This document shows positions 1 to 44,150 of a stretch of 64,000 bases of DNA, piece by piece. Origin of the DNA: a virus; the IMG/VR virus record IMGVR_UViG_3300032605_000009, positions 13,526 to 77,525 of that record; one strand, given 5' to 3'. The position numbers and the translations under genes were made by a program. The first letter of the stretch is position 1; every line of letters starts with the position of its first letter. The notes below the pieces were generated by a model. The model was not told the origin of the DNA, made no database searches, and saw nothing but the letters and a program-made list of their open reading frames with translations.

Positions 1-1
1 T

Positions 2-799
2 CACTTCGAGTGGGACTGGCGAGATGTTGCTAAGTGCAACCCTAACTACGCTAAGTTCATTAAGCGTGAGATGCTTCGTATCGGCGAAGACTCTGACGAG
101 TTCCAGATGTCGTACTGCGGCAAGTGGCTCCTAGAACGAGGCATGTTCGTTACCTCTACAGTTATGGACGAGCTTGGCGACACCTCTCAAGAGGTAGTTA
201 AAGCCTGGCACCGTTCTCCTGTTGTAGTGGGCATTGACCCAGCCCGTAAGATGGACTCCACAGTAGTCACAGTTGTTTGGGTTGACTGGGATCGCCCTGA
301 TGAGTTCGGCCTCTACGACCACCGTATTCTTAACTGGCTTGAGATCCAAGGCGATGACTGGGAAGACCAGTACTTCCAGATCGTTAACTTCCTTTCTAAC
401 TACGACGTCCTAGCAGTAGGTGTAGATGCGAACGGTGTAGGCGATGCCGTAGCCCAGCGTCTAAAGATCCTACTTCCTAGAGCTGAGGTACATCCAGTAG
501 GCAGCTCCCAGCAGGAGCAATCCAAGCGTTGGAAGCACCTAAAGCAGCTTATAGATAGACGCTTAGTAGGTTGGCCTTCTCACGCAAAGACTCGTCGTCT
601 ACGTACCTGGAAGCGCTTTTACCAGCAGATGACAGACCTAGAGGTTAAGTTCAATGGCCCTAACTTCTCTGCCGCTGCCCCAGATGAGGCTCACGCCCAT
701 GACGACTTTGCTGACTCTTTGGCTATTGCCTGCTCTCTAACTATGGAATTAGCTATGCCTTCAGTAGAGGTAAGCTCGAATCTATTTTTTAGTAGATAA
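2..799 (+). CDS. terL: Terminase large subunit, C-terminal nuclease domain (5'-truncated by window edge)
   Basis: Frame is open from position 2 (HFEWDWRD...). Motifs VVVGIDPAR, VGVDANGVG and HDDFADSLAIA are typical of the TerL RNase H-like domain. Lies upstream of the portal. Confidence 0.9.
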   Translation, partial: HFEWDWRDVAKCNPNYAKFIKREMLRIGEDSDEFQMSYCGKWLLERGMFVTSTVMDELGDTSQEVVKAWHRSPVVVGIDPARKMDSTVVTVVWVDWDRPDEFGLYDHRILNWLEIQGDDWEDQYFQIVNFLSNYDVLAVGVDANGVGDAVAQRLKILLPRAEVHPVGSSQQEQSKRWKHLKQLIDRRLVGWPSHAKTRRLRTWKRFYQQMTDLEVKFNGPNFSAAAPDEAHAHDDFADSLAIACSLTMELAMPSVEVSSNLFFSR

Positions 800-802
800 G
801 CC

Positions 803-838
803 GTTTAGCCTTACTTACACCTCTTTCTGTAGCACACT
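803..838 (+). promoter_or_regulatory. Putative phage promoter GTTTAG-N24-CACACT
   Basis: The same two-part motif and spacing recur at 3629, 6717, 17701, 40323, 49425, 49768 and 51548, always just upstream of a gene. Confidence 0.55.
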
Positions 839-878
839 TTAACTGAGGTCCTCAAACCCATATTTCAAGGAGTCATAT

Positions 879-1277
879 ATGACAATCGCACCAGATCCAA
901 AGTTCCCAGAGAACTCTCCAATCGTTTACGATCGTAAAGTTTCTCCAGCTCTTCCAGGTCAACGCGGCCCACTTCGCTTCGAAGAAGGCCTAGCTACAGA
1001 CACCGATATCCCTAACGAATTCTCAAAGGGTGCTGCCCAGGGTTACACAGCTGCTCCAGGTCGCCCAAACCGCAACGTCAACGTATTTGAGAAGTTCCCA
1101 GAAGAGACAATGCGTGAGCGTGCTCACGTTGGCTCAGCTGCATGGGTTGAAGCTCCTAACACACTTCAGGAGTTCTCAAACGGTGCTTTCGCTGATCATG
1201 GCGATAACCGCATCGAAGAGGTTATGCGTAACGGTTCACATCAGCAACGCCTTAACCCTGCTGTAGTTAACGACTAA
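879..1277 (+). CDS. Hypothetical protein (head module)
   Basis: 132-aa ORF, AAGGAG SD, codon usage like the major structural genes. Confidence 0.75.
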   Translation: MTIAPDPKFPENSPIVYDRKVSPALPGQRGPLRFEEGLATDTDIPNEFSKGAAQGYTAAPGRPNRNVNVFEKFPEETMRERAHVGSAAWVEAPNTLQEFSNGAFADHGDNRIEEVMRNGSHQQRLNPAVVND

Positions 1278-1287
1278 TCAAATAAGT

Positions 1288-1332
1288 TTCTTGCCCTCCG
1301 TATTCAGGTGACATGGCTGGCGGGGGCAAGAA
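1288..1332 (+). promoter_or_regulatory. Intergenic stem-loop
   Basis: TTCTTGCCC(T)CCG pairs with CGGGGGCAAGAA around a 20-nt interior. Confidence 0.4.
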
Positions 1333-1349
1333 CCTATTAAAGGACAAAC

Positions 1350-1658
1350 ATGGCTCTGATTCAAGGACAAGAAGCTAAGGAAGCACCTAAGCAATACCCT
1401 GCTAATCCTAAGCTCTGGAACATGCTTACAACTCAAGCACGCTCCAAGTTCCGCGCCTACCCATCTCCAGCTGCAGCGCACTGGGTTCACAGTCGTTATC
1501 AGCAACTTGGCGGCAAGTTCGTCGATTCCAAGAAGCAGGTCGATCCAAAGATGCGCGACTACGCTCAAGAGCGTAAAGATAAGATCGAAGAGAAGCAAAA
1601 GAAGAAAGTAACTAAGCCTGTGGGTAAGAACCTTATCTATGGCGAGCGATATAGATAA
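1350..1658 (+). CDS. Hypothetical basic protein
   Basis: 102-aa ORF with AAGGA SD; PSPAAAHWVHSRYQQLGGKF motif. Confidence 0.75.
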   Translation: MALIQGQEAKEAPKQYPANPKLWNMLTTQARSKFRAYPSPAAAHWVHSRYQQLGGKFVDSKKQVDPKMRDYAQERKDKIEEKQKKKVTKPVGKNLIYGERYR

Positions 1659-1716
1659 TAACTAGCTTAGTGTGTTACCATATGTCGACAAATAGATTTA
1701 TTGAGAGGAAGTGTAA

Positions 1717-1908
1717 GTGCCAGCACTAAGTAGCAAGCGCACAGCTCCTCTCCTAGTGGACGCTGGCCTTGTGTTTGGCCGACTCACAGCCACCGCAGCT
1801 CTTTACCCATTTACTGAAGACATGAAAAGCATGGTTGCTACCGCCGTACGAGCACCACGTACAGCCCAGGCTCTGCCTGTTACGGACGGAAAGGAGGTGA
1901 GCGCATAA
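1717..1908 (+). CDS. Small hypothetical protein
   Basis: GTG start after GAGAGGA; its TAA overlaps the ATG at 1908 (TAATG coupling). Confidence 0.45.
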   Translation: MPALSSKRTAPLLVDAGLVFGRLTATAALYPFTEDMKSMVATAVRAPRTAQALPVTDGKEVSA

Positions 1909-2063
1909 TGTCAATTGATTTTTCACCACCATCCTACCGCGCAGCATCGTCGGATTTAACAATATCAATCAGCCCCCTAGGCCTAGTAGAACTCGCAGAC
2001 GAAGAGTTCGAGGTGCACGGGCCACGCTTGAATAGATACTCGTTAAATTGGGCGATGTATTAG
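1908..2063 (+). CDS. Portal protein, N-terminal segment (51 aa, MSIDFSPPSY...NWAMY*), not in ORF track
   Basis: Perfect SD AAGGAGGTGA at 1891-1900, 7 nt before ATG 1908. Ends TAT TAG at 2058-2063, directly before the portal reading frame. Confidence 0.75.
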   Translation: MSIDFSPPSYRAASSDLTISISPLGLVELADEEFEVHGPRLNRYSLNWAMY

Positions 2064-2064
2064 T

Positions 2065-3624
2065 TACCTAGGTCATCACTGGTCGTACCGCCGTCAAACA
2101 GGCGAAGCCCAAATGGCACTCAACTATTTTCGTGCCTTCTCAGATTTCATCATTAACTTCACCTTTGGCAAGGGCGTTAACTTCCGCTCACCTAAGGAAA
2201 CAGAAGCTATTGTCCCAGACCTTCTAGAGCGTGTATGGGAAGTAGATAACAACAAAGCTACAGTTCTTTGGGAAATCGGCCAACAAGGCGGAGTATCTGG
2301 AGACTGCTTTATCAAGGTAGCTTACGAAGAAGCATTCGTGGATACCGCAGGCCGCGCTCACCCAGGCCGTGTACGTATCCTGCCACTTAACGCATCATTC
2401 TCTTTCCCAGAGTTCCACCCACATGATCGCGAGCGCCTCATCCGTTTCAAGTTGAAGTACCGCTTCTGGGGCACATCACTTGAAGGCACACGTCAAGTAT
2501 TCACTTACACTGAAATCTTGACAGACGACACGATTGAGGAATACATCAATGACGAGCTCATTGACTCGCGCCCAAACCCACTGGGCACTATACCCGTTAT
2601 ACATATTCCTAACATTCGTATTTCTGGTTCTCCTTGGGGTCTCTCAGACTGTGATCAGATTATCAGCATTAACCGTACGTATAACGAAACGGCGACAGAC
2701 ATTGCGGACATCGTTAACTACCACGCAGCGCCAGTTACAGTTATTATCGGCGCTAAGGCGGCGCAGCTAGAAAAAGGCGCCAACAAGGTATGGGGTGGCT
2801 TGCCTAAGGATGCTCGTGTAGAAAACCTTGAAGGCGGCGGCTCTGGCCTAAAGCTTGGTCTTGAGTTCCTTGAGCTAATGAAGAAGGCCATGCACGAAAT
2901 GGTCGGCGTACCTGAGACTGCTCTTGGTCAGGCTATGCCAGTATCTAACACATCAGGTGTTGCTCTTAGCATTATGTTCCAGCCTCTTATGGCTCGTTAC
3001 CACCAAAAGATTATTCAATACGCTCACGGCCTAGAGCGCGTCAATGAGCTTATCCTTCTTAACCTTGCTGTTAAGGAGCCTGAGGTATTTACCTGGGATC
3101 CTAACTCAAGCACAACGCCTCTAAAGCCTGGTCAGCTTTCACAGCTAGATCCTAATGACCCTATTACTTTCCGCTCTTATGTTCACTTCCCACCTCCGCT
3201 ACCACTAGACAAGCTCATCGTTCTGAACGAGATTCAGACCAAGATGTCCCTTGGCTTGGAGTCAAAGGAAGGCGCTTTGCGCCTATTGGGCGAAGAGTTC
3301 CCTGCTGAGAAGCTCACCGAGATCCGTCAAGAACTCATGGATGACGCTAAGGCTGATGGTGCTCTTAAGCTCCTACAGACCGAAATCAACAATGAAATTG
3401 CTTCCCTTACAGGAATGCTCCCTGCAGAAGGTGGTATGGCTGAGCCTCTACCTACTGGTCCAGAAGGAGAACCTGCAGTCCCTCAAGGCGGACCAACTCC
3501 GATCCTTGATGAGGCAACCATGCTGAACACAGCAGGTGAGGCGGCTCTACGTAACCGCCTAGTTACAGAAGCTTACGGCACCCAGATCCCACAGAGAAGG
3601 ACGCCGCAAGACTACGAGAAGTAA
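2065..3624 (+). CDS. Portal protein, main segment (ORF track 2113..3624; frame reads from TAC 2065: YLGHHWSYRRQTGEAQMALNY...)
   Basis: SPP1 gp6-like portal features (PNPLGTIPVIHIPN, GLSD, NTSGVAL) and position between terminase and scaffold. ATG 2113 lacks a clear SD. Confidence 0.88.
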   Translation, partial: YLGHHWSYRRQTGEAQMALNYFRAFSDFIINFTFGKGVNFRSPKETEAIVPDLLERVWEVDNNKATVLWEIGQQGGVSGDCFIKVAYEEAFVDTAGRAHPGRVRILPLNASFSFPEFHPHDRERLIRFKLKYRFWGTSLEGTRQVFTYTEILTDDTIEEYINDELIDSRPNPLGTIPVIHIPNIRISGSPWGLSDCDQIISINRTYNETATDIADIVNYHAAPVTVIIGAKAAQLEKGANKVWGGLPKDARVENLEGGGSGLKLGLEFLELMKKAMHEMVGVPETALGQAMPVSNTSGVALSIMFQPLMARYHQKIIQYAHGLERVNELILLNLAVKEPEVFTWDPNSSTTPLKPGQLSQLDPNDPITFRSYVHFPPPLPLDKLIVLNEIQTKMSLGLESKEGALRLLGEEFPAEKLTEIRQELMDDAKADGALKLLQTEINNEIASLTGMLPAEGGMAEPLPTGPEGEPAVPQGGPTPILDEATMLNTAGEAALRNRLVTEAYGTQIPQRRTPQDYEK

Positions 3625-3628
3625 TGCA

Positions 3629-3663
3629 GTTTAGCCTGTATTTCTTTCTATGTAGGGCAAAAT
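3629..3663 (+). promoter_or_regulatory. Putative promoter GTTTAG-N23-CAAAAT for the scaffold/capsid operon
   Basis: Member of the recurring motif family. Confidence 0.5.
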
Positions 3664-3744
3664 TAAATATACAACTAACGGTAGGTCATACGTGATACGG
3701 GCTTCGGCTCATTTGGAAAACGACCCAGAGGATAAGGACATATT

Positions 3745-4542
3745 ATGTCAGAAACAGCAGAAGTTATGGCGGATGCCTTCGCGGCTGAAGCTAACACAGT
3801 TCCAGTAGTAAATGTGTCTGGCGTTGATGCGCAGACTGCTACGGAATCTCCTGAAGCACGTCCTGGTAAGACTCAGAAGTTTTATACTGAAGATGATCTA
3901 GCCAAGGTTCGAGCCCAGGAAAAGAACAAGCTCTATCCTGAACTTGAGAGCCTACGAGGAGAAGTCCTTGAGCTCAAAAAAGAGAAGGAAGCTAAGGATG
4001 CTGCTAAAGCTCAGCAACGCGCTGAAGAGGAAGCAGCTCTACGAGCTAAGCAAGAAGACGAGCTATCAGCTAAAGATCTTCTTAAGCTTAAAGAGCAAGA
4101 ATGGAAAGAGCAGCTTGAGCATGAGCGTCAAGAACGCGAACGCGCTATCGCTCTTCTGGAACAAGAAAAGGCTTTTGCCGATCTACAGCAATACCGCCAA
4201 CAGCGTTTAGAGCAAGAACGAGACAACATCGTCCCTGAACTGCTCGACCTGGTACACGGCAACTCTCGTGAAGAGTTGGATGCAAGTCTTAATGATTTGC
4301 AACAACGCTCTGCGAAGATCCTAGAGTCTGCTCAGCAGGCACTAGTTAACGCTCGTAAAGAAATGCCAGGAACAAGGGCAACCTTGCCTCCTGCTGGACC
4401 ACTGGAAACTAATTCGGAACAACGTCAGTTTACGGCAGATGAGATCGCTTCTATGCCAATGAACGAATACGCTAAATACAGAAGTCGCCTATTGAGTGAT
4501 AGAGCTCAGGGTAAGACATCGGGAATGTTCGGCTCAAAGTAA
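3745..4542 (+). CDS. Capsid scaffolding protein
   Basis: E/K/Q/R-rich coiled coil, FYTEDDLAKVR motif, directly upstream of the capsid gene. Confidence 0.8.
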   Translation: MSETAEVMADAFAAEANTVPVVNVSGVDAQTATESPEARPGKTQKFYTEDDLAKVRAQEKNKLYPELESLRGEVLELKKEKEAKDAAKAQQRAEEEAALRAKQEDELSAKDLLKLKEQEWKEQLEHERQERERAIALLEQEKAFADLQQYRQQRLEQERDNIVPELLDLVHGNSREELDASLNDLQQRSAKILESAQQALVNARKEMPGTRATLPPAGPLETNSEQRQFTADEIASMPMNEYAKYRSRLLSDRAQGKTSGMFGSK

Positions 4543-4578
4543 CCCTAACCTCAACTCTATAGAAAAGGAACCATCTAA

Positions 4579-5652
4579 ATGGCTTCAGGTATCACAGGTA
4601 CCGGCAATCTAGCCGCGTCACCAACAGCCTACTCAGGCACAAACACCCAGCTCACACAGGCAATCCAACAGATCTGGTCTAAGGAAATCCTATTCCAGGC
4701 TATGCCAATCCTTCGTTTTGAACAATTCGCTGTTAAGAAGACTGAACTAGGTGTTGCACCTGGTCTCCAGATCAACTTCATGCGTTACAACAACCTCGGC
4801 TTTGCTTCACCATTGGTCGAAGGTGTACGTATGCAGACAAACGCTCTTACAGCTCAACAGTTCTCAATCACAGTAACAGAGCATGGTTATGCTCTTGCTG
4901 TTTCAGAACTTCTTCTTAACGCTTCATTCGATGACGTAATGGCTTCTGCTTCACGTCTTCTCGGTCGCAACATGGCTCTCTACCTTGATGGCCTTTCACG
5001 CGATACTCTCTATGCAGCTTCTTCAACACTTTACGGTGAAGATCGCTCATCAGTCTCATCTGCTGTCAACAACTGGTACGGATACGGCACATTCGCTACA
5101 TCTCGTGCTTCAATGACAGGTTCTTCATACTTGACACCACACGTTGTCAAGGACACAGTAGAGACCTTGGCTACAAAGAACATCCCTCGTTTGGGCGAGA
5201 CCTACGTCTGCTTCGTTCACCCTCACCAATCACGTACACTTCGCGACAACCCAGAGTTCATCGAAGTAACAAAGTACGCTGCTCCAGGCAACTTCATGCT
5301 CGGTGAAATCGGACGTTTGTACGATGTAGTCTTCATCGAAACAACACAGGTTCTCCACGTTCCTGGTGGTGCTGGTGCTAACTACACAGCTGACTCAACA
5401 GTCGCTAACCCAGTAGTTGTACCTGGCGGAGGATACACAACTCCTAACACCCTCACAGGTAACGGTTCATCTGACCGCTACAGCGCTATCTTCATCGGAG
5501 ACAACGCTTTCGGTCACGCTATCTCTCTTCCAGTCGAGCTCCGCGATGGCGGTATCTTGGACTTTGGTCGTGAGCATGCGCTTGCTTGGTACTCAATCTT
5601 CGGACTTGGCCTAATCACAGACCAAAGCGTAGTAATTGCGGAGACCAATTAG
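4579..5652 (+). CDS. Major capsid protein (N4-gp56-like, HK97 fold)
   Basis: 357 aa; YVCFVHPHQ, GEIGRLYDVVFIET, DFGREHALAWY motifs; strongly biased codon usage. Confidence 0.9.
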   Translation: MASGITGTGNLAASPTAYSGTNTQLTQAIQQIWSKEILFQAMPILRFEQFAVKKTELGVAPGLQINFMRYNNLGFASPLVEGVRMQTNALTAQQFSITVTEHGYALAVSELLLNASFDDVMASASRLLGRNMALYLDGLSRDTLYAASSTLYGEDRSSVSSAVNNWYGYGTFATSRASMTGSSYLTPHVVKDTVETLATKNIPRLGETYVCFVHPHQSRTLRDNPEFIEVTKYAAPGNFMLGEIGRLYDVVFIETTQVLHVPGGAGANYTADSTVANPVVVPGGGYTTPNTLTGNGSSDRYSAIFIGDNAFGHAISLPVELRDGGILDFGREHALAWYSIFGLGLITDQSVVIAETN

Positions 5653-5671
5653 CCTAAACAGTGATAAGATT

Positions 5672-5700
5672 CTCCTAGTAGGCAACTAGCCTGCTAGGAG
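5672..5700 (+). promoter_or_regulatory. Hairpin sequestering the SD of the homing endonuclease
   Basis: CTCCTAGTAGGC-AACTA-GCCTGCTAGGAG: 12-bp stem (one G-U) whose 3' arm contains AGGAG. Confidence 0.7.
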
Positions 5701-5711
5701 GTCTTTTACAC

Positions 5712-6275
5712 ATGGCAGTAAAAGAAGGATGTCCGCAAGGACATAAATATACAGAAGAAAACTCTTACATAGATAAGAACGGTTATACCCACTGCAGAAC
5801 TTGTCGCTTAGAGCGAATGAGAGAGCGCAGAAAGGATAACTTAAGGGTTGGACGTGGCGTTAATAACGCCTCTAAGACTGAGTGCCCTAAAGGTCACCCC
5901 TATGATGAAGAGAACACAATTACATATGTAAAGCCTAACGGTAGAACTAGAAGATGTTGCCGTGAGTGTGCCAGAGTAAACATGATTACCCAGAACGTTA
6001 AACGTTATGGAATAACCAAACCAGACTTCGAAGCACTAGTAGCATCACAAGATTCTAGATGTGCCATATGCAAAGGAAAGTTCTGGGATGAGGTCTCCTC
6101 TCCCCATATAGACCACGACCACACCTGCTGTAATGAGCAAATGAGGTCATGTGGCAAATGTATAAGAGGACTCCTATGCAGAGGCTGTAACCAAGTTCTT
6201 GGCTGTGCCAAGGACGACATCGAGACCTTAAAGGCCGCGATAAAGTACTTACGGTCAGGAACTCTGACTTTTTAA
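5712..6275 (+). CDS. Free-standing EndoVII-family (HNH) homing endonuclease
   Basis: Two N-terminal CPxGHxYxEEN..CRxC repeats plus CAIC...HIDHDH...RGLLCRGCN EndoVII core; AGA/ATA-rich codons unlike neighbouring genes. Confidence 0.85.
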   Translation: MAVKEGCPQGHKYTEENSYIDKNGYTHCRTCRLERMRERRKDNLRVGRGVNNASKTECPKGHPYDEENTITYVKPNGRTRRCCRECARVNMITQNVKRYGITKPDFEALVASQDSRCAICKGKFWDEVSSPHIDHDHTCCNEQMRSCGKCIRGLLCRGCNQVLGCAKDDIETLKAAIKYLRSGTLTF

Positions 6276-6301
6276 CCGAGACAATACATTGGAGAATTAT
6301 C

Positions 6302-6670
6302 ATGGCAACACAGAAAGCAAAACCAACCGACGTTACTGGTCGTGCGCGAGAAGCTCTCGCTGAACAGTTCGCCGAAGACCAAGCGCAACGCGCTGGTGAG
6401 ATGTCCCTAGCTACAGCTAAGGCAAGTGCACAGCTTGATGAAGTAATTGATGCAACAACCCCTAACCGTCAGACAGTCATTGTTGATGCTGTAACCACAG
6501 TAGGAAACGATGAAGGCGACATGGTTGAGATCCGCACAACTGACAACATTGAGAATATGACCCTTGGTAAGGGCAACACCTATAACTTCAAGGCAGGACA
6601 GAAGTACAAGGTTACTCGTCACGTTGCTACTCACCTTAAGGAAAAAGGCTACCTGGCTGGCGTCATCTAA
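6302..6670 (+). CDS. Hypothetical head-associated protein
   Basis: GGAG SD, structural-gene codon bias, follows the capsid gene. Confidence 0.7.
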   Translation: MATQKAKPTDVTGRAREALAEQFAEDQAQRAGEMSLATAKASAQLDEVIDATTPNRQTVIVDAVTTVGNDEGDMVEIRTTDNIENMTLGKGNTYNFKAGQKYKVTRHVATHLKEKGYLAGVI

Positions 6671-6687
6671 GGCGTAACTTTACGACT

Positions 6688-6715
6688 GAGCGGACTCTCG
6701 TCGGGTCCGCTTTTT
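6688..6715 (+). terminator. Rho-independent terminator
   Basis: GAGCGGACTC/GGGTCCGCTT stem followed by a T run. Confidence 0.75.
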
Positions 6716-6782
6716 CGTTTGTGCAGATTTTTAGGCTAATACACGCCATCATAGTACAGGCGTCTTTATGTAGGGAGTTTAT

Positions 6783-7850
6783 GTGGCTACGATCTCTGAT
6801 CTACTCTCTCGAGTCCGTCTAGAGCTTGGCGATCAGCAAAAGGCGTTTACCTTTAACGCAACAGGCGACGGCTCCACTAAAGTCTTTGCAACTGGCATTA
6901 AGCCAATGGAAGTTGAAAACTTATCGGTCAAGGTAGCTGGAAGCAGCATTGCGTACCCTACTGGCTACACTGTTGAGCAGAGCACAGGTATTGTCACCTT
7001 TGCTACAGCTCCAGCTAATAACGCGGCTATTGTCATTCAAGGCAATGTAGATCGCTACTTCCTAGATTCAGAGCTCACGGAGTTCATCAACGATGCTGTG
7101 AACCAGCACACATATAACCGCGTAGATTCCTACGGCAGCCAAGTTACTCTTGCTACTATCTCTGCAGTTGAGGAATACCCAGTAGCTATCCTCGCCTCTA
7201 TCGAAGGGCTATGGGCTCTCGCTACAGACGCAGCTTTTGATATCAACATCACGGCCCCAGACGGCGTAATGATTCCACGTTCTGAGCGTTACCGTCAGCT
7301 TACAGAGATTATCTCTGAGCGTTGGAACCAGTACCGACTCCTCTGCTCACAGCTCAACATTGGTCTCTGGAAGATCGAGATGGGTACCCTCATCCGTACT
7401 TCCCGCACTACCAACAAATATGTTCCTATCTATGTTGGTCAAGAGATCGACGACTCTCGTATGCCAGAGCGCGTCTGGATCCAGAACAACCTTACTGGCC
7501 GCAACCCATTCCCTTCATATGCTCAGACTTACGATATTGTCCTTTACCAAGGAAACAGCTACCAATCTACATTTGATTTTCCATTTGATATTACGGGCAT
7601 GGACTTTGAGGCGCAGATTCGCACCTACCCAAACTCTCCATCACTCTATGCAACGTTTGAAGTTACAGTCGTATCAACCTCTACAAGCTTAAGCACACTA
7701 CAGCTTAACCTTGAGGTTAGCGATACTGAGTACCTTCCTCCACGTGCTTTTTGGGATCTAAGAGCTACCTCATCATCAGACTCTAACTGGGCTCAGACTT
7801 ACATTAAGGGGCAGGTGTTTACCACTGAGGCGGTAACCCTTGACTACTAG
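6783..7850 (+). CDS. Head-tail adaptor / neck-like structural protein
   Basis: Starts DLLSRVRLELGD; YFLDSELTEFI motif typical of adaptors; Ig-like insertions. Confidence 0.6.
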   Translation: MATISDLLSRVRLELGDQQKAFTFNATGDGSTKVFATGIKPMEVENLSVKVAGSSIAYPTGYTVEQSTGIVTFATAPANNAAIVIQGNVDRYFLDSELTEFINDAVNQHTYNRVDSYGSQVTLATISAVEEYPVAILASIEGLWALATDAAFDINITAPDGVMIPRSERYRQLTEIISERWNQYRLLCSQLNIGLWKIEMGTLIRTSRTTNKYVPIYVGQEIDDSRMPERVWIQNNLTGRNPFPSYAQTYDIVLYQGNSYQSTFDFPFDITGMDFEAQIRTYPNSPSLYATFEVTVVSTSTSLSTLQLNLEVSDTEYLPPRAFWDLRATSSSDSNWAQTYIKGQVFTTEAVTLDY

Positions 7851-8262
7851 TTGTAATAGATGTGGTAGTTGGCCGTGTAACTGTGGAGCCATTACTGTAA
7901 CCCCTTCTGCGCCTATCGTTATCCAGGTCTCAACACCTACCCAGTACACCCAGTCTCAAACCACCCTTCAGGTCCTGCCTGGGCAAGGTGGGGCTAGAGG
8001 TATACAAGGTACGCAGGGCCTTCAGGGCTCTTATGGTGTACAGGGAGCTACTGGAACCAGTCTTCATAACATCTCTTATACCTATACCCAGGCTACCCCT
8101 TCGGCTACTTGGACTATTAATCATAATTTGGGCTATAACCCTAACCTTACAGTTCAAGATTCCGCTGGTACCATTGTTGAAGGCGAAATATCGTACACCA
8201 ATTCGAACTCACTTACGGTCACATTCTCAGCAGCTTTTAGCGGATACGCGTACCTATCTTAA
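7840..8262 (+). CDS. Small structural protein with short collagen-like stretch
   Basis: GxQ triplets plus C-terminal WTINHNLGYNP domain. Confidence 0.65.
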   Translation: MTTSCNRCGSWPCNCGAITVTPSAPIVIQVSTPTQYTQSQTTLQVLPGQGGARGIQGTQGLQGSYGVQGATGTSLHNISYTYTQATPSATWTINHNLGYNPNLTVQDSAGTIVEGEISYTNSNSLTVTFSAAFSGYAYLS

Positions 8263-28375: not shown

Positions 28376-30052
28376 ATGGCAACCAGCAGTAACTATGTCC
28401 CACAGGTGGATTACACCTCCCGTGACTATGCGGCTATCAGCGCTGATCTTCAGAACCTGATTCCTAACTTCCTGCCCGACTGGACCAACCGTGACCCAGC
28501 TGACTTTGGTATTACCCTGATTGAGCTATTCGCTTATATGGGTGACCTCATGTCCTACTACATTGACCGCTCTGCTAACGAGGCATTCTTAACCACAGCC
28601 AGCCAGCGTCAAAGCGTTCTTCAGATCGCCAATTTGCTCAATTACACCCCTAGTGGCTTGATTGACGCGACAACCACCTTAGAGTTTACAAACTCTACAA
28701 CCTCAGCTATCACAGTACCAGCGGGTACTCAGGTAGCTACAACTGCCGTAGTAAACGGCACTAACCCACAGGTTATCTTTGAAACCCAGCTCGATGTCGT
28801 AGTACCAGCAACCAGCACAACTGCTGTTGGAACAGCGTCTTCTACATCAGTGGTAACTTTGTCTGCGGCTAACACCAACATCTCTGTAGGAATGACAGTA
28901 GCTGGAACAGGCGTCGACTCTGGCACCATAGTAACGGCAGTAAACAGTGACGTCTCTATTACCCTAAGCGAATCTGTTACTTTGTCAGCAGTCACTCTTA
29001 CCTTTACTTCTCCAAGCCCAACAGCTTCAGTTCAGGCTCAAGAAGGTCAGACAATCACCTCTGATCCTATTCAGGTATCTGATGGACTGGCCTCTCAGAT
29101 TTACCAGCTTGTACAAAGTCCAGTAATCCAAAACAGCGTGGCTGTAACTGTAGACAACAACATCTACACCCAGGTAAGCAATCTTCTTGACTCAGGTCCA
29201 AATGATGCCGTCTTTGCAGTAACAATAGACGCAAACAACAACAGTTACGTTCAGTTTGGCGACAACATCAGTGGCCGTATCCCGCCAATCAACTCTCTTA
29301 TTAGCTTCACCTATCGTATTGGCGTAGGCGCGGCAGGAAACGTTTCTGCTGGCTCATTAACCAAGATCTTGAACCTTAACGCTGCTGGACTTTCCGTAAC
29401 CCAAGCTAACCCAGCTATCGGTGGCGCAGACATCGAATCCACTGACTCTATCCGTGTAAATGCGCAGGCCCCTGTGTCAAACAGTGGTCGCGTTGTATCT
29501 TTACAGGACTATCAAACCGCAGTTACAGGCGGAGTACAAAATGCTAGTAAAGCTAACGCGATCTCTAGTGTCTACACGGCAGTTACTCTTTATGTAGCTC
29601 AAAAAGGTGACCCAGGAATCGATCCACTAACAAGTGATTACACCACTGCGTTCGTTACCTTGTCTTCTTCAGTTCAAAGCTTCTTGACAGGTAAGACAGC
29701 CCCTAACGTAACGGTCAGCGTGCTTCCTCCGACTTATGTACCTATCAACGTTACATTGGCAATCGTTGCCCCTAAGAACGTGCGAAACAGCACCGTTCAG
29801 ACCGCTGCAACAGCAGCTATCGCTGGCCTACTTACCTTTGACGCCACATCTTTCGGTGAAACTGTTAAAGTTGATGATATAAGGAACGCCCTGTACGCAC
29901 TAAATAGTCAAAACACTCAGGTGTCAAGCATTACGTTCACGACCGTGGCCCGTTCAAACGGTTCAGGTTACGCGGACGTTGTTTGCGCCCCGAATGAGAT
30001 ACCCGAAGCTGGAACAATAACTGTAACCGTAACTGGCGGAATCTCGAGCTAA
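28376..30052 (+). CDS. Baseplate J / gp6-like wedge protein
   Basis: DYTSRDY, DFGITLIELFAY, FGDNISGRIP, GGADIES, VSLQDY motifs. Confidence 0.9.
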   Translation: MATSSNYVPQVDYTSRDYAAISADLQNLIPNFLPDWTNRDPADFGITLIELFAYMGDLMSYYIDRSANEAFLTTASQRQSVLQIANLLNYTPSGLIDATTTLEFTNSTTSAITVPAGTQVATTAVVNGTNPQVIFETQLDVVVPATSTTAVGTASSTSVVTLSAANTNISVGMTVAGTGVDSGTIVTAVNSDVSITLSESVTLSAVTLTFTSPSPTASVQAQEGQTITSDPIQVSDGLASQIYQLVQSPVIQNSVAVTVDNNIYTQVSNLLDSGPNDAVFAVTIDANNNSYVQFGDNISGRIPPINSLISFTYRIGVGAAGNVSAGSLTKILNLNAAGLSVTQANPAIGGADIESTDSIRVNAQAPVSNSGRVVSLQDYQTAVTGGVQNASKANAISSVYTAVTLYVAQKGDPGIDPLTSDYTTAFVTLSSSVQSFLTGKTAPNVTVSVLPPTYVPINVTLAIVAPKNVRNSTVQTAATAAIAGLLTFDATSFGETVKVDDIRNALYALNSQNTQVSSITFTTVARSNGSGYADVVCAPNEIPEAGTITVTVTGGISS

Positions 30053-30061
30053 GGACAGAGA

Positions 30062-30421
30062 ATGACTACTTACTATCCAAATGGGATAACCCCTTTTACT
30101 ACTCACGTAGACATCACTGAGATCATTGATGCGTCTCATGTCAACAAGCTTCAGACTGAAGTAACCTCTATCGAAACAATCGTAGGTGTTACCCCATCTA
30201 CTGTACCTACAGGCGGCTTTGCTACCGACCTTACGGCAGCTTCCAGCACGAGCAATCCAACGCCTACGTCAAATTTGTACTTGACGGCTGGGACTCAATT
30301 TAACAGCATCTCTGATCGTATTACAAACGTTGAAAACATTGCTATCACGGCTTACACCTCAGGAGCAGCTGCAGCACAGGTAGGAAATGTACTAGCGGTA
30401 GAAGTACTCGGCGGATTCTAA
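30062..30421 (+). CDS. Baseplate/fibre-associated protein
   Basis: IIDASHVNKLQTEV..IE motif; AAGGA SD. Confidence 0.6.
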   Translation: MTTYYPNGITPFTTHVDITEIIDASHVNKLQTEVTSIETIVGVTPSTVPTGGFATDLTAASSTSNPTPTSNLYLTAGTQFNSISDRITNVENIAITAYTSGAAAAQVGNVLAVEVLGGF

Positions 30422-42173: not shown

Positions 42174-44150
42174 ATGGGGTTAATTCTTACTAAAGAAGAA
42201 CTAGATGAGATGGTTGCTTACTATCTAACACAAGACGCTTTTGCTTACGATGTGGAAACAATGGGAGATCGCCGAGGCGATACTCCAGTAAACGATGTAG
42301 TGTGGATTAGCTTTGCCACATATGGCCGTGTAGATGTTATTCCTATGGGTCATCCTAATGGAGAGTTTATAGGCTTAGACCGCCCGTTAACTGGTCAGGG
42401 CCAAAAGCGTGTAGACGCTGGACATGCTCCTCGTGAAAGCGATTACTCTCGCAGTGATAAGCGAGCAACAAAACTATTCTCACCTGCTCCAGAACAACTG
42501 TTCCCAGCAGAGGTATTCAAGGCGCTAGAGCCTTTAATGTTTAACGATAAGATTCTTAAGGTCGGGCATAACCTAGCCTTCGACCTTACTTCAGTTGCTA
42601 AGTACCTAGGTAAGCGTGTGCCTGTAGGCCCTTACTTTGACACTATGATTGCCTCGTTCCTGTACAACACACAGAATAAAGGTAAGTGCGGACTTGCTGA
42701 TTGCTTGAAGCGTGAGATCGGCTACGAGATGGTCAAGGGCGTCGGTAAAGAGATTGAAGCCCACTCATTCCTAGAGACATATAAGTACGCTGCTTTGGAT
42801 GCTAAGTACACCTTCTTGCTATGGAAAGCTTTAATCCCTAAGCTAGAAGAGTCAGGCGTCGAGAAGGTAATGAACCTAGAGATGGATGTACTGGCAGTTC
42901 TTTGCGATATGAAGCTTACTGGTGCTCCGATTGATATGGACAGCCTTACAAAGCTTCAGATCACACTAGAAGCTGAACTAGAGATCAAGCGTGCTTCTAT
43001 CTACAAGCAAGCTGGTCGTCAGTTCAACATCAACTCTATTCCAGAACGTCAAGAGCTTTTATACAAGCCTAAGATTGAGGGCGGTCGTGGTCTTAAGACC
43101 AAGGTACTCACTACAAAGGGCCAAGAAAAGAGCGATGAGGGTAAGGAACTACTTTACACAGACTACTCCACCTCCTCAGAAGCACTGGCTGAGAACAAGG
43201 AGAAGGACGAGCTTTGTAAATTGCTCGTAGAGTACGCAGATCTTAACAAGTTGCTTACTACTTATGTGATTCCATACCTAGGTGGGGACGTAACCAAGAC
43301 CACTGGCGGTAAGTCTAAGACCGAGTACCGTGACAGCCTGTTAATCAATGGCCGTATTCATTGCGACTTTGTGCAGAACGGTGCGGAGACTGGTCGTTTC
43401 TCCAGCCGTAATCCAAACCTACAGAACGTCCCTAGTCCTGCTACTGCTCACGGTAAGGCGATTCGTAATCTCTTTATCCCACCAGTGGGGCAAAAGCTAG
43501 TAGTCGCCGATTACTCTCAGATTGAACCTCGTATCATTGCTGACTTCTCTCATGACCCAATCATGGTTAAGTCATACCTAGATAAAGAGGATATCTACAT
43601 GACTGTAGCGGCTACCATGGGCGTTAACCGTGCTGCTGGTAAGACCCTAGTCTTATCCATGGCCTACGGCGTAGGTCCTGACAAGATAGCCCGCAGTATT
43701 GGCTGTACCAACACAGAGGCTAAAAAGCTTCTTAACGACTTCGCTGAAAAATTCTCCGCCGTTGGCCTGTATAAGTTAAGAGTCATCGGGGTAGCCCGTA
43801 AGCGTAAGTATGTAGTCACTGCCACAGGGCGCCGTCGCTACCTTCCAGATATCGTATCCAGTAACCGTGAGAAGAAGGCGGGTGCTGAGCGCCAGGCCTT
43901 CAATACTGTGATCCAAGGCACAGCTGCCGACATCATGAAGATAGCCATGGTCCGTGCTCATAAGATGATTCCAGAAGGTGCTAAGATACTCCTCACAGTG
44001 CACGATGAACTTGTGACTTCCTGCCCAGAGCACTTAGCTGAACAGACTGCCGAGGCCATTCGTGAAGCAATGGAAGGCGTAAAGATGCTCAAGACTATTC
44101 CGCTTATCGCGGATGTGAAGATAGTGGATAAGTGGGGTATGGCTAAGTAA
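42174..44150 (+). CDS. polA: DNA polymerase I family A (3'-5' exonuclease + polymerase)
   Basis: YDVET, GHNLAFD, YAALDA, TGRFSSRNPNLQN, DYSQIEPR, IQGTAAD, VHDE motifs. Confidence 0.95.
   Translation: MGLILTKEELDEMVAYYLTQDAFAYDVETMGDRRGDTPVNDVVWISFATYGRVDVIPMGHPNGEFIGLDRPLTGQGQKRVDAGHAPRESDYSRSDKRATKLFSPAPEQLFPAEVFKALEPLMFNDKILKVGHNLAFDLTSVAKYLGKRVPVGPYFDTMIASFLYNTQNKGKCGLADCLKREIGYEMVKGVGKEIEAHSFLETYKYAALDAKYTFLLWKALIPKLEESGVEKVMNLEMDVLAVLCDMKLTGAPIDMDSLTKLQITLEAELEIKRASIYKQAGRQFNINSIPERQELLYKPKIEGGRGLKTKVLTTKGQEKSDEGKELLYTDYSTSSEALAENKEKDELCKLLVEYADLNKLLTTYVIPYLGGDVTKTTGGKSKTEYRDSLLINGRIHCDFVQNGAETGRFSSRNPNLQNVPSPATAHGKAIRNLFIPPVGQKLVVADYSQIEPRIIADFSHDPIMVKSYLDKEDIYMTVAATMGVNRAAGKTLVLSMAYGVGPDKIARSIGCTNTEAKKLLNDFAEKFSAVGLYKLRVIGVARKRKYVVTATGRRRYLPDIVSSNREKKAGAERQAFNTVIQGTAADIMKIAMVRAHKMIPEGAKILLTVHDELVTSCPEHLAEQTAEAIREAMEGVKMLKTIPLIADVKIVDKWGMAK

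Follow-up and report, generated by a model that had tools for sequence, protein, structure and literature searches.

The window analyzed here, a 64,000-nt stretch of DNA from an uncultured freshwater phage, contains an interrupted gene for the portal protein, which is essential. All features of the window described below are located on the plus strand. The portal gene is preceded by the Shine-Dalgarno sequence AAGGAGGTGA (1891 to 1900), which lies inside the 3' end of an upstream open reading frame (ORF; codons ...DGKEV), and begins with the ATG at 1908. Its first 51 codons (1908 to 2060; MSIDFSPP...RYSLNWAMY), whose residues show 92 to 100% conservation across all relatives, end with TGG GCG ATG TAT and run into the stop codon TAG (2061 to 2063), giving an ORF of 1908 to 2063. 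A 7-nt insert (2061 to 2067) consists of this stop codon, T 2064, and TAC (2065 to 2067); its boundaries are ambiguous, TATTAGT (2058 to 2064) being an equally valid drawing. T 2064, TAC 2065 to 2067, and CTA 2068 are in the same frame as ATG 2113 and the 503-amino-acid ORF that extends to 3624, and this portal frame, +1 relative to the 1908 ORF, is open from 2044 on. We refer to TAT (2058 to 2060) as the take-off codon and to TAC (2065 to 2067) as the landing codon; both encode tyrosine, and TAG is the A-site codon at take-off. Portal codons 52 to 569 and the stop codon span 2068 to 3624, decoding being predicted to restart at CTA 2068. A tandem duplication as the origin of the 7 nt was rejected by eye, TA(Y) alone being repeated.

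The 503-amino-acid ORF encodes an SPP1-type portal protein (PF05133), with a match that begins at profile position 44. When the two parts were joined across the break, the match reached back to profile position 16. The residues YLGHHWSYRRQTGEAQ that precede ATG 2113 are conserved, 16 residues separating the landing codon from this ATG, and the ATG lacks a clear Shine-Dalgarno sequence. As read from the sequence, ATG 2113 is thus an internal methionine codon and not the portal start. A preliminary description of this DNA had proposed the Shine-Dalgarno sequence, the 51 codons starting at 1908, the stop codon, the +1 continuation, and the poorly preceded ATG 2113, and all of these were confirmed in the sequence.

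More than 3,700 portal homologs were found, and those examined all read NWAMYLGHH without a gap; among the aligned homologs of ~571 amino acids, NWAM-YLGHH was ungapped in every one. The joined protein was collinear with the homologs through MY|LG. Since the homologs are ungapped at this point, the window carries exactly 7 extra nt. At the DNA level, the insert was absent in 80 of the 80 closest IMG/VR loci, and 78 of the 80 loci in a second set were uninterrupted; insert carriers thus amounted to 2 of 160 loci in samples not selected for inserts. One portal gene that is 99% identical to that of the window (P0002) does not contain the insert. These data verify the uninterrupted NWAMYLGHHW that the preliminary description had attributed to related actinophages. 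The closest cultured relatives are Streptomyces phages (portal identity of 56%), and a megablast search of positions 1 to 8000 of the window against cultured phages gave no match.

The initial observation rested on one metagenomic contig, which left room for a sequencing or assembly artifact. The evidence from sequencing runs consists of assembled Logan contigs, and those of the lake runs X1, X15, and X17, three independent assemblies, span 2061 to 2067 with 0 gaps; the X17 contig carries the insert along with a differing nearby single-nucleotide polymorphism. The presence of the insert in independent assemblies of three lake runs shows that it is not an assembly error. Furthermore, the 503-amino-acid ORF of the window is recorded on 13 contigs, and dozens of contigs in other samples contain the same or similar inserts. 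The artifact explanation is hence refuted at the assembly level, in line with the earlier view that such an insertion would be an unusual sequencing error, and we assign it practically no probability. Seventeen lake-water runs contained 50% or more of the words sampled from the stretch, and among public runs, no RNA run with the stretch was found.

In related IMG/VR phages, at least 18 distinct inserts of 4 to 10 nt interrupt the portal gene at one or the other of two hot spots, namely, EFE|V (site 1) and MY|LG (site 2). The lengths observed among the 18 designs were 4, 6, 7, 8, 9, and 10 nt, and their common layout comprises a take-off codon, a stop codon, 0 to 4 nt, and a matching landing triplet. 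The stop codon directly follows the take-off codon in 17 of the 18 designs, the exception having UUA. The landing triplet is fully cognate to the take-off tRNA in 12 designs and matches at two of three positions in the other 6; these near-cognate landing triplets are a point against ribosomal hopping. The layout XXX-TAG-N-XXX was observed at both sites. One locus (L123) carries an insert identical to that of the window, and the near-variants TAG G TAC and TAG TT TAC were detected at 12 other loci. Other designs include TAT TAA C TTA and TAT TGA C TTA (4 nt), TAC-T-TAC, whose A-site codon is UUA (L145), and, as an example of an in-frame design, GAA TAA TAA GTC. The search for relatives with the same or other inserts, suggested in the preliminary description, was therefore successful, and the layout is beyond chance because 18 designs at two sites repeat it.

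The take-off codon of the window is located in the 3' arm of a predicted RNA hairpin, GAUACUCGUU-AAAUUG-GGCGA(U)GUAUU (2035 to 2061). With -7.7 kcal/mol, this hairpin is modest; its z score is -2.8, and an equal fold was obtained in 2 of 200 shuffles. The 63-nt context around the site was no stabler than its shuffles (z = 0.26); the 5' hairpin is the only notable fold. In interrupted relatives, the 33-nt segment that ends with the take-off codon had a median minimum free energy of -10.7 kcal/mol, as opposed to -3.7 kcal/mol in those without an interruption (Mann-Whitney p = 2.6e-5, kinship being ignored). Similarly, Ala49 is encoded by GCG in 11/11 interrupted versus 27/98 uninterrupted genes, a count that also ignores kinship. 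The register of the hairpin varies between lineages. We consider this structure a candidate hop stimulator. An element-specific nascent peptide is absent, since the 51 amino acids before take-off are the native, conserved N terminus of the portal protein.

At almost every insert-bearing locus, an HNH endonuclease gene or its remnant was found directly before the portal start. Among the loci with at least 800 nt of upstream sequence, 19 contained both an insert and an HNH gene, 4 an insert without HNH gene, 138 neither, and 0 an HNH gene without insert (kinship ignored); the 4 loci correspond to this window and one other lineage. A search seeded with HNH proteins revealed an insert in 33 of the 33 portal genes that reach the sites. 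Class I HNH genes always occur with site 2, and class II genes always with site 1. Inserts were thus always accompanied by a present or decayed HNH cassette, bar one lineage that was not examined for a remnant.

The ORF upstream of the portal gene (1717 to 1908) is a decayed HNH homing-endonuclease gene, as revealed by a protein alignment that included 10 intact HNH genes from related phages. Its 63 amino acids correspond to the N-terminal 26 and the C-terminal 37 amino acids of a class I HNH protein of ~210 amino acids. The catalytic core is gone; the nucleotide alignment with L123 places a deletion of ~440 nt between about 1798 and 1810. The intact copies of relatives match PF01844/PF14279, and no domain match was obtained for the ORF of the window. 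The C-terminal motif D-G-x-E-V is conserved among HNH genes, and the stop codon TAA (1906 to 1908) overlaps the portal ATG. The 3' portion of the cassette, which is mobile (1885 to 2069), comprising the HNH 3' end, portal codons 1 to 51, and the insert, is ~96 to 100% identical to L123 at the DNA level. Outside of ~1885 to 2069, identity drops to ~65 to 70% in the upstream and ~83% in the downstream flank, which places the cassette boundary at the insert. In the comparison of L128, which has the HNH gene, and L207, which lacks it, divergent tracts surround the HNH gene within flanks that are 99% identical; this appears to be an analogous co-conversion tract.

Several observations concern the functionality of the interrupted gene. 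Among interrupted lineages, pN/pS was about 0.03 to 0.29 overall and about 0.06 to 0.29 in the 57 codons after landing, showing that both sides of the break are under purifying selection. An interrupted portal gene is also present in a complete genome with direct terminal repeats (DTR) (G004). In a whole-genome comparison of G000, G001, G002, and G004, only the portal gene was interrupted; one weak, low-identity candidate split gene was noted in G000 (43475 to 43715, minus strand). In two interrupted loci (L094 and L120), a run of 58 or more conserved codons that follows the landing site is free of ATG, GTG, and TTG. No tRNA genes were found in the window, G000, or G004, and a suppressor tRNA was rejected as an explanation on these grounds and because frame-shifting inserts are beyond suppression.

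We consider it probable that the 7 nt are an orphaned homing-endonuclease immunity insert and that ribosomes pass it by a 7-nt stop-hop, in the manner of T4 gene 60/mobA. A free-standing HNH cassette would once have inserted ahead of the portal start, behind a small upstream gene. Its endonuclease gene has since lost the catalytic core, leaving the ORF at 1717 to 1908, whereas the insert has stayed. By analogy to T4 gene 60/mobA, the insert may disrupt the nuclease target within an invariant portal stretch and thereby spare the genome from being cut by its own endonuclease or, now, by that of a relative. We infer this protection from the absence of HNH-bearing loci without an insert and from the specificity of the insert site for the HNH class. 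During translation, a ribosome with peptidyl-tRNA-Tyr on UAU 2058 would encounter UAG in its A site; the tRNA would un-pair, the mRNA would slide by 7 nt, probably aided by the hairpin refolding just behind the ribosome, and the tRNA would re-pair with UAC 2065. Decoding would then resume at CUA 2068 to produce a single wild-type chain (...NWAMY-LGHHW...), with YSLNWAMYLGHHWSYR as the junction peptide. Most likely, a short ribosomal hop alone restores the conserved protein for all insert designs; the occurrence of the hop, its efficiency, and the role of the hairpin are deduced from sequence comparisons. The hop proposed in the preliminary description is thus the one reading compatible with every related insert, but the purpose assigned to it is not supported.

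That purpose was to set the dose or timing of the portal protein. A phage capsid needs only 12 portal copies, the insert has been kept in the window despite the decay of the HNH gene, and the portal gene is the only one interrupted in the four genomes compared, all of which would agree with a hop that acts mainly as a throttle and has an incidental link to the nuclease. Nonetheless, nearly all family members make their portal protein without an insert (see the 2 carriers among 160 unselected loci), the inserts occur with a present or decayed cassette with the exception of the lineage mentioned above, and their site varies with the HNH class, which a role in dosage does not predict. We found no support for the throttle, the insert being tied to the HNH cassette instead, and regard it as improbable. 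A +1 frameshift at UAU-UAG, in which U 2061 is skipped, also appears unlikely. It would add two residues (...NWAMY-SY-LGHHW..., hence ...MYSYLG...), so that the junction peptide NWAMYSYLGHHW would be expected in place of NWAMYLGHHW. A stop codon in the A site is a classic +1 stimulator, a shift anywhere in 2044 to 2063 would yield a fusion as the frame is open from 2044, the window sequence by itself is compatible with MY-SY-LG, and the 4-nt designs can be read likewise with one residue added. However, tRNA-Tyr is unable to re-pair with AUU, the length of NWAMYLGHH is invariant in all homologs examined, and L117 has a TAG in the +1 frame inside its insert. Moreover, the inserts of relatives that measure 6, 8, 9, or 10 nt are beyond repair by a +1 shift, which also leaves the matched landing codons without explanation.

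The portal gene might alternatively be broken, in a defective phage that lives off the portal protein of co-infecting uninterrupted relatives. Such relatives occurred in these runs at a comparable depth, as seen from loose ends at 2065 and 2068, which makes complementation in trans conceivable, and the source record is linear and 81% complete. This scenario is at odds with the strong purifying selection that many interrupted lineages show before as well as after the break, with the complete DTR genome that carries an insert, and with the lack of damage to any other gene in the four genomes; in addition, the 33 HNH-bearing portal genes all have hop-competent designs and not random lesions. We judge it very unlikely. 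There is even less reason to expect two assembling polypeptides, namely, the 51-residue N-terminal peptide and a body re-initiated at ATG 2113 or nearby. This ATG is located 50 nt past the stop codon, but it lacks a clear Shine-Dalgarno sequence and the 16 residues between it and the landing codon are conserved. Re-initiation is equally difficult to reconcile with L094 and L120, which are devoid of start codons over the stretch given above, and with designs such as GAA TAA TAA GTC, which give no start codon; its probability is accordingly minimal.

Few cases of natural bypassing have been published, namely, T4 gene 60 and its homologs, yeast mitochondrial byps, and the candidate terminase of phiHau3, and the biological purpose of bypassing is still debated. 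According to the part of the literature available to us, the bypass of T4 gene 60 sits within the homing-endonuclease element of MobA, an HNH enzyme (Huang 1988; Bonocora 2011; via bioRxiv 10.1101/2022.08.31.505936). To the extent covered by these sources, T4 gene 60 and the window share matched take-off and landing codons and a stop codon right after take-off. Likewise, in T4 gene 60 and the portal family, the product is collinear with uninterrupted homologs, the insert travels with an HNH gene just upstream, and the element brings its own version of the flanking coding sequence, which extends to the landing codon or slightly past it. In both cases, the insertions have a sporadic distribution and a recent origin in many clades, and the endonuclease is often decayed with the bypass kept, as in T4 itself. 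The systems differ in the gap, which is 4 to 10 nt in the portal family (7 in the window) as compared to 50 nt in T4 gene 60, and in the target, a portal gene here and a topoisomerase gene in T4. Unlike in T4, the nuclease gene does not divide the host gene but precedes its start codon, an element-specific nascent peptide is lacking, and two insert sites, each paired with its own nuclease class, accommodate many alternative designs. What MobA and the HNH family of the window are shown to share is the HNH domain (PF01844/PF14279).

The large-terminase gene of the Streptomyces phage phiHau3 contains two 10-nt inserts, and a 10-nt bypass was confirmed by mass spectrometry in E. coli; a 7-nt terminase case was described in an S. 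catenulae prophage (PMC10732093). PhiHau3 and the window have in common a short (7 to 10 nt) noncoding block within an actinophage gene that is essential for packaging or structure, a nearby landing codon, proposed 5' structures, and an invariant junction region in homologs. The A-site codon is the rare UUA in phiHau3, whereas it is the stop codon UAG in the window, which rules out a phiHau3-type, UUA-triggered bypass for the latter; L145 is the only relative that resembles the phiHau3 layout. The role proposed for the phiHau3 bypass is sensing of the host growth phase, and no link to an endonuclease is reported in the available sections (PMC10732093). Our search of the literature revealed neither reports of portal-gene hops nor any of short stop-hops tied to homing endonucleases. 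Weiss et al. reportedly described, in 1987, short hops over stop codons in E. coli reporters at about a percent, a low level that counts against the hop proposed here. The geometry is the same as in the window, with the peptidyl-tRNA re-pairing a few nucleotides past the stop codon, but those hops concern laboratory constructs or errors, whereas the layout of the window is natural, recurrent, under selection, and associated with a hairpin. The byps of Magnusiomyces capitatus mitochondria are 27 to 55 nt long and occur in many mitochondrial genes without an endonuclease partner, which sets them apart from the portal inserts. As cited in PMC10732093, they resemble the latter in being numerous ribosome-skipped inserts that behave as if mobile.

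With respect to annotation, interrupted portal genes are called as a 51-amino-acid ORF and a truncated ORF of 503 amino acids (13 contigs), and the decayed nuclease is labeled a hypothetical protein. If the proposed reading is correct, the portal family comprises dozens of bypass sites that are independent, minimal, shaped by natural selection, and individually paired with a nuclease class, all within a single essential gene, and would permit testing the minimal ribosome requirements for hopping as well as the idea that bypass inserts confer immunity to homing endonucleases. A broader proposition, for which we see about even chances, is that short, hairpin-aided stop-hops of 4 to 10 nt are general and efficient in the hosts of freshwater actinophages and that homing-endonuclease cassettes repeatedly invent them, making invariant coding DNA uncuttable and leaving the protein unchanged. 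In that case, the designs at the two sites of the portal gene, at least 18 in number, would represent a mutagenesis series made by nature, one that sets out the minimal rules for bypassing, and the window would show a resistance insert that has outlived its nuclease, much as a gene drive can leave a resistant allele behind.

The portal gene of the window, a 64,000-nt segment (bases 13526-77525) of a linear, 77.5-kb IMG/VR virus record estimated as 81% complete, is interrupted near its start. On the plus strand, a strong Shine-Dalgarno sequence, AAGGAGGTGA (1891-1900), located within the 3' end of an HNH endonuclease remnant, precedes the ATG at 1908, which opens 51 codons ending in AAT TGG GCG ATG TAT TAG. 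The TAT (2058-2060) is the last codon before the stop TAG (2061-2063), followed by T 2064, TAC 2065-2067 and CTA 2068, both codons being in the same frame as ATG 2113 and a 503-aa ORF (end at 3624) encoding an SPP1-type portal (PF05133). This is the layout given in the preliminary description. The PF05133 match of the 503-aa ORF starts at profile position 44 and reaches back to position 16 when the break is read through with an X. More than 3,700 portal homologues were retrieved, the best being ~571 aa long, and the motif NWAM-YLGHH(W/Y) is gapless in every homologue aligned, as the preliminary description had suggested for related phages. Since the 80 closest IMG/VR loci also carry ATG TAY YTN GGN at the DNA level, the excess in the window is exactly 7 nt. 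Among cultured phages, the nearest relatives are the Streptomyces phages BRock, GiJojo and Alone3, with portals that are 56% identical.

The 7-nt insert is real. Seventeen lake-water metagenome runs each contain 50% or more of the words sampled from window positions 1200-4200, and Logan contigs from three of these (X1, a possible source run, X15 and X17) span 2061-2067 without gaps; the X17 contig has a nearby SNP and thus derives from a slightly different strain. The truncated 503-aa ORF is recorded on 13 contigs. A 569-aa portal without the insert, 99% identical to that of the window, is also on record, and contigs of uninterrupted relatives are present in the same runs as insert-bearing ones.

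The preliminary description had suggested looking for similar inserts in relatives, and these were found. A degenerate DNA pattern across the site retrieved another 23 IMG/VR portal loci in which a small insert occupies precisely this position; the portal bodies of these loci share only 64-90% identity with that of the window. Nucleotide alignment revealed a second hot spot at the residues EEFEV, ~55 nt further upstream, and two additional searches brought the number of designs tabulated to 18. At the downstream site, between MY and LG (site 2), these are TAT TAG T TAC (the window and the related locus L123), TAT TAG G TAC, TAT TAG TT TAC, TAT TAA C TTA, TAT TGA C TTA, TAC T TAC and GGT TGA ATA GGT. 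At the upstream site, between EFE and V (site 1), they are GAA TAG T GAA, GAA TAG C GAA, GAA TAG T GAG, GAA TAG T GTA, GAA T GAA, GAA TAA TAA, GAG TAA G TAG, TTC TGA CTC, TTC TGA CGA TTT, GAA TAG CCC GAA and GAA TAG CCCC GAA. Insert lengths are 4, 6, 7, 8, 9 and 10 nt. A stop immediately follows the take-off codon in 17 of the 18 designs, and the landing triplet is cognate to the take-off tRNA in 12, with two of three positions matching in the other 6. In the UGA designs (loci L117, L174, L160 and L225), the next base is C in 3 of 5 cases, a number too small for testing; in E. coli, termination at UGA C is weak. The GC-richer locus L145 (IMGVR_UViG_3300037045_000044) has TAC-T-TAC, with UUA and no stop in the A site, a layout similar to that of the UUA-triggered bypass suggested for Streptomyces phage phiHau3.

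Frameshifting or readthrough was considered as a common rule, and neither restores the invariant protein across all 18 designs, whereas a hop from take-off codon to landing triplet does so in every one. In the window, a peptidyl-tRNA-Tyr at UAU 2058 would stall before UAG, un-pair and, after the mRNA has moved by 7 nt, re-pair with UAC 2065, so that CUA 2068 would be the first codon decoded. Separate initiation of the portal body is argued against by loci L094 and L120, in which no ATG, GTG or TTG occurs across at least 58 conserved codons past the landing triplet. Between interrupted lineages, pN/pS is ~0.03-0.29, both in the portal part before the break and in the 57 codons that follow the landing triplet, and G004, a complete genome bounded by direct terminal repeats, has GGT TGA ATA GGT in its portal gene. 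The putative bypass is supported by comparative sequence evidence. Among four whole genomes, the portal gene was the only interrupted one; a weak split-ORF hint in genome G000 relative to G001 (C1:43475-43715, minus strand, corresponding to ~29950-30190 of the window; two tblastn pieces of low identity, 32-48%, separated by 20 nt and read in different frames) is probably noise. No tRNA genes were found in G000 or G004.

A candidate stimulator was noted upstream of the break. For the 33-nt stretch that has the take-off codon at its 3' end, the median folding energy is -10.7 kcal/mol in interrupted versus -3.7 kcal/mol in uninterrupted sequences (Mann-Whitney p = 2.6e-5, for unique sequences with shared ancestry ignored), and the 3' arm of the hairpin has GCG as its Ala codon in 11/11 interrupted as compared to 27/98 uninterrupted sequences. 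The window hairpin (2035-2061) has -7.7 kcal/mol (z = -2.8); the insert-free locus L001 has no corresponding hairpin. For gene 60 bypassing, one study proposes a role for pairing of the exiting mRNA (bioRxiv 10.1101/2024.12.09.627546), which we read as a hairpin re-forming behind the ribosome and pulling the mRNA forward; the portal hairpin may act in the same way.

ORF maps showed that, in interrupted loci, a 205-240-aa gene separates the portal start from a small gene upstream of it. This 205-240-aa gene is missing from uninterrupted loci and encodes an HNH endonuclease (PF01844, PF14279). For loci whose upstream sequence reached 800 nt or more, the HNH gene was present in 19 and absent from 4 of those with an insert, and present in 0 and absent from 138 of those without. 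The 4 exceptions comprise the window plus a second lineage (L089, L118, L166). With the HNH protein as query, which makes the search blind to inserts, 35 loci with this gene ahead of the portal were retrieved, and all 33 that extend to the sites carry an insert. Class I HNH proteins (GRLTAT-type N-terminus) are in every case accompanied by a site-2 insert, some of these loci having both inserts, and class II proteins, with a different N-terminal domain, by a site-1 insert only. The first ~60 portal residues (window 1908-2110 and all relatives), the putative target of both classes, are 92-100% conserved with synonymous sites free to vary, an unusually strong constraint on the N-terminus, in phages whose portal bodies are only ~65% identical. 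The L089/L118/L166 lineage has two inserts (GAA TAG CCCC GAA and GGT TGA ATA GGT) and no upstream HNH gene, but its spacing between small gene and portal exceeds that of HNH-less phages by ~50-100 nt, so that a short HNH remnant is possible; this lineage would be a second case of an orphan insert like that of the window. The window also harbors a second free-standing nuclease gene (5712-6275, plus strand; 187 aa, Endonuclease VII/HNH-like, PF02945, E = 3e-20), which follows the major capsid gene (4579-5652) and precedes the next one. This nuclease gene is found in the window, L082 and L174 and not in L094, L120, L002, L010, L020 or L064, a sporadic distribution like that of a homing endonuclease; no insert was seen in its neighboring genes.

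A 63-aa ORF of the window (1717-1908, plus strand) matches class I HNH proteins at both ends, over their N-terminal 26 and C-terminal 37 residues. According to a nucleotide alignment with L123, the catalytic core was removed by a ~440-nt deletion located between 1798 and 1810. Near-identity to L123 is confined to ~1885-2069, comprising the HNH 3' end, portal codons 1 to 51 and the insert; identity is ~83% directly after the insert and ~65-70% upstream of the shared tract. Loci L128 (with HNH gene) and L207 (without) have 99% identical flanks and diverge for ~130 nt before and ~300 nt after the HNH gene. The insert therefore marks the end of the cassette, which brings along a portal N-terminus of its own. 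A MobA element of the same organization has been described (bioRxiv 10.1101/2022.08.31.505936).

Judged by its sequence, the feature is a homing-endonuclease cassette with a putative bypass insert, a kind already known from T4 gene 60/mobA. That system and its homologues are among the closest published ones, with a gap of 50 nt as compared to 7 nt in the window (bioRxiv 10.1101/2022.08.31.505936). The other is the phiHau3 terminase, with a 10-nt bypass that was confirmed in E. coli by mass spectrometry and is triggered by UUA instead of the UAG of the window (PMC10732093). Literature searches for portal hops and for short stop-hops linked to homing endonucleases returned nothing. Of the earlier proposal, the stop-hop itself gained comparative evidence, but its suggested purpose, setting portal dose or timing, found no support: the inserts go with the HNH gene, and their site follows the HNH class. 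Considering the T4 precedent, the lack of HNH loci without an insert and the site specificity by HNH class, the insert may instead render the invariant portal target uncuttable while leaving the protein unchanged. The window contributes an orphaned insert next to a decayed endonuclease gene; its retention would reflect either a low cost or continued protection against relatives from this lake that bear the HNH gene.
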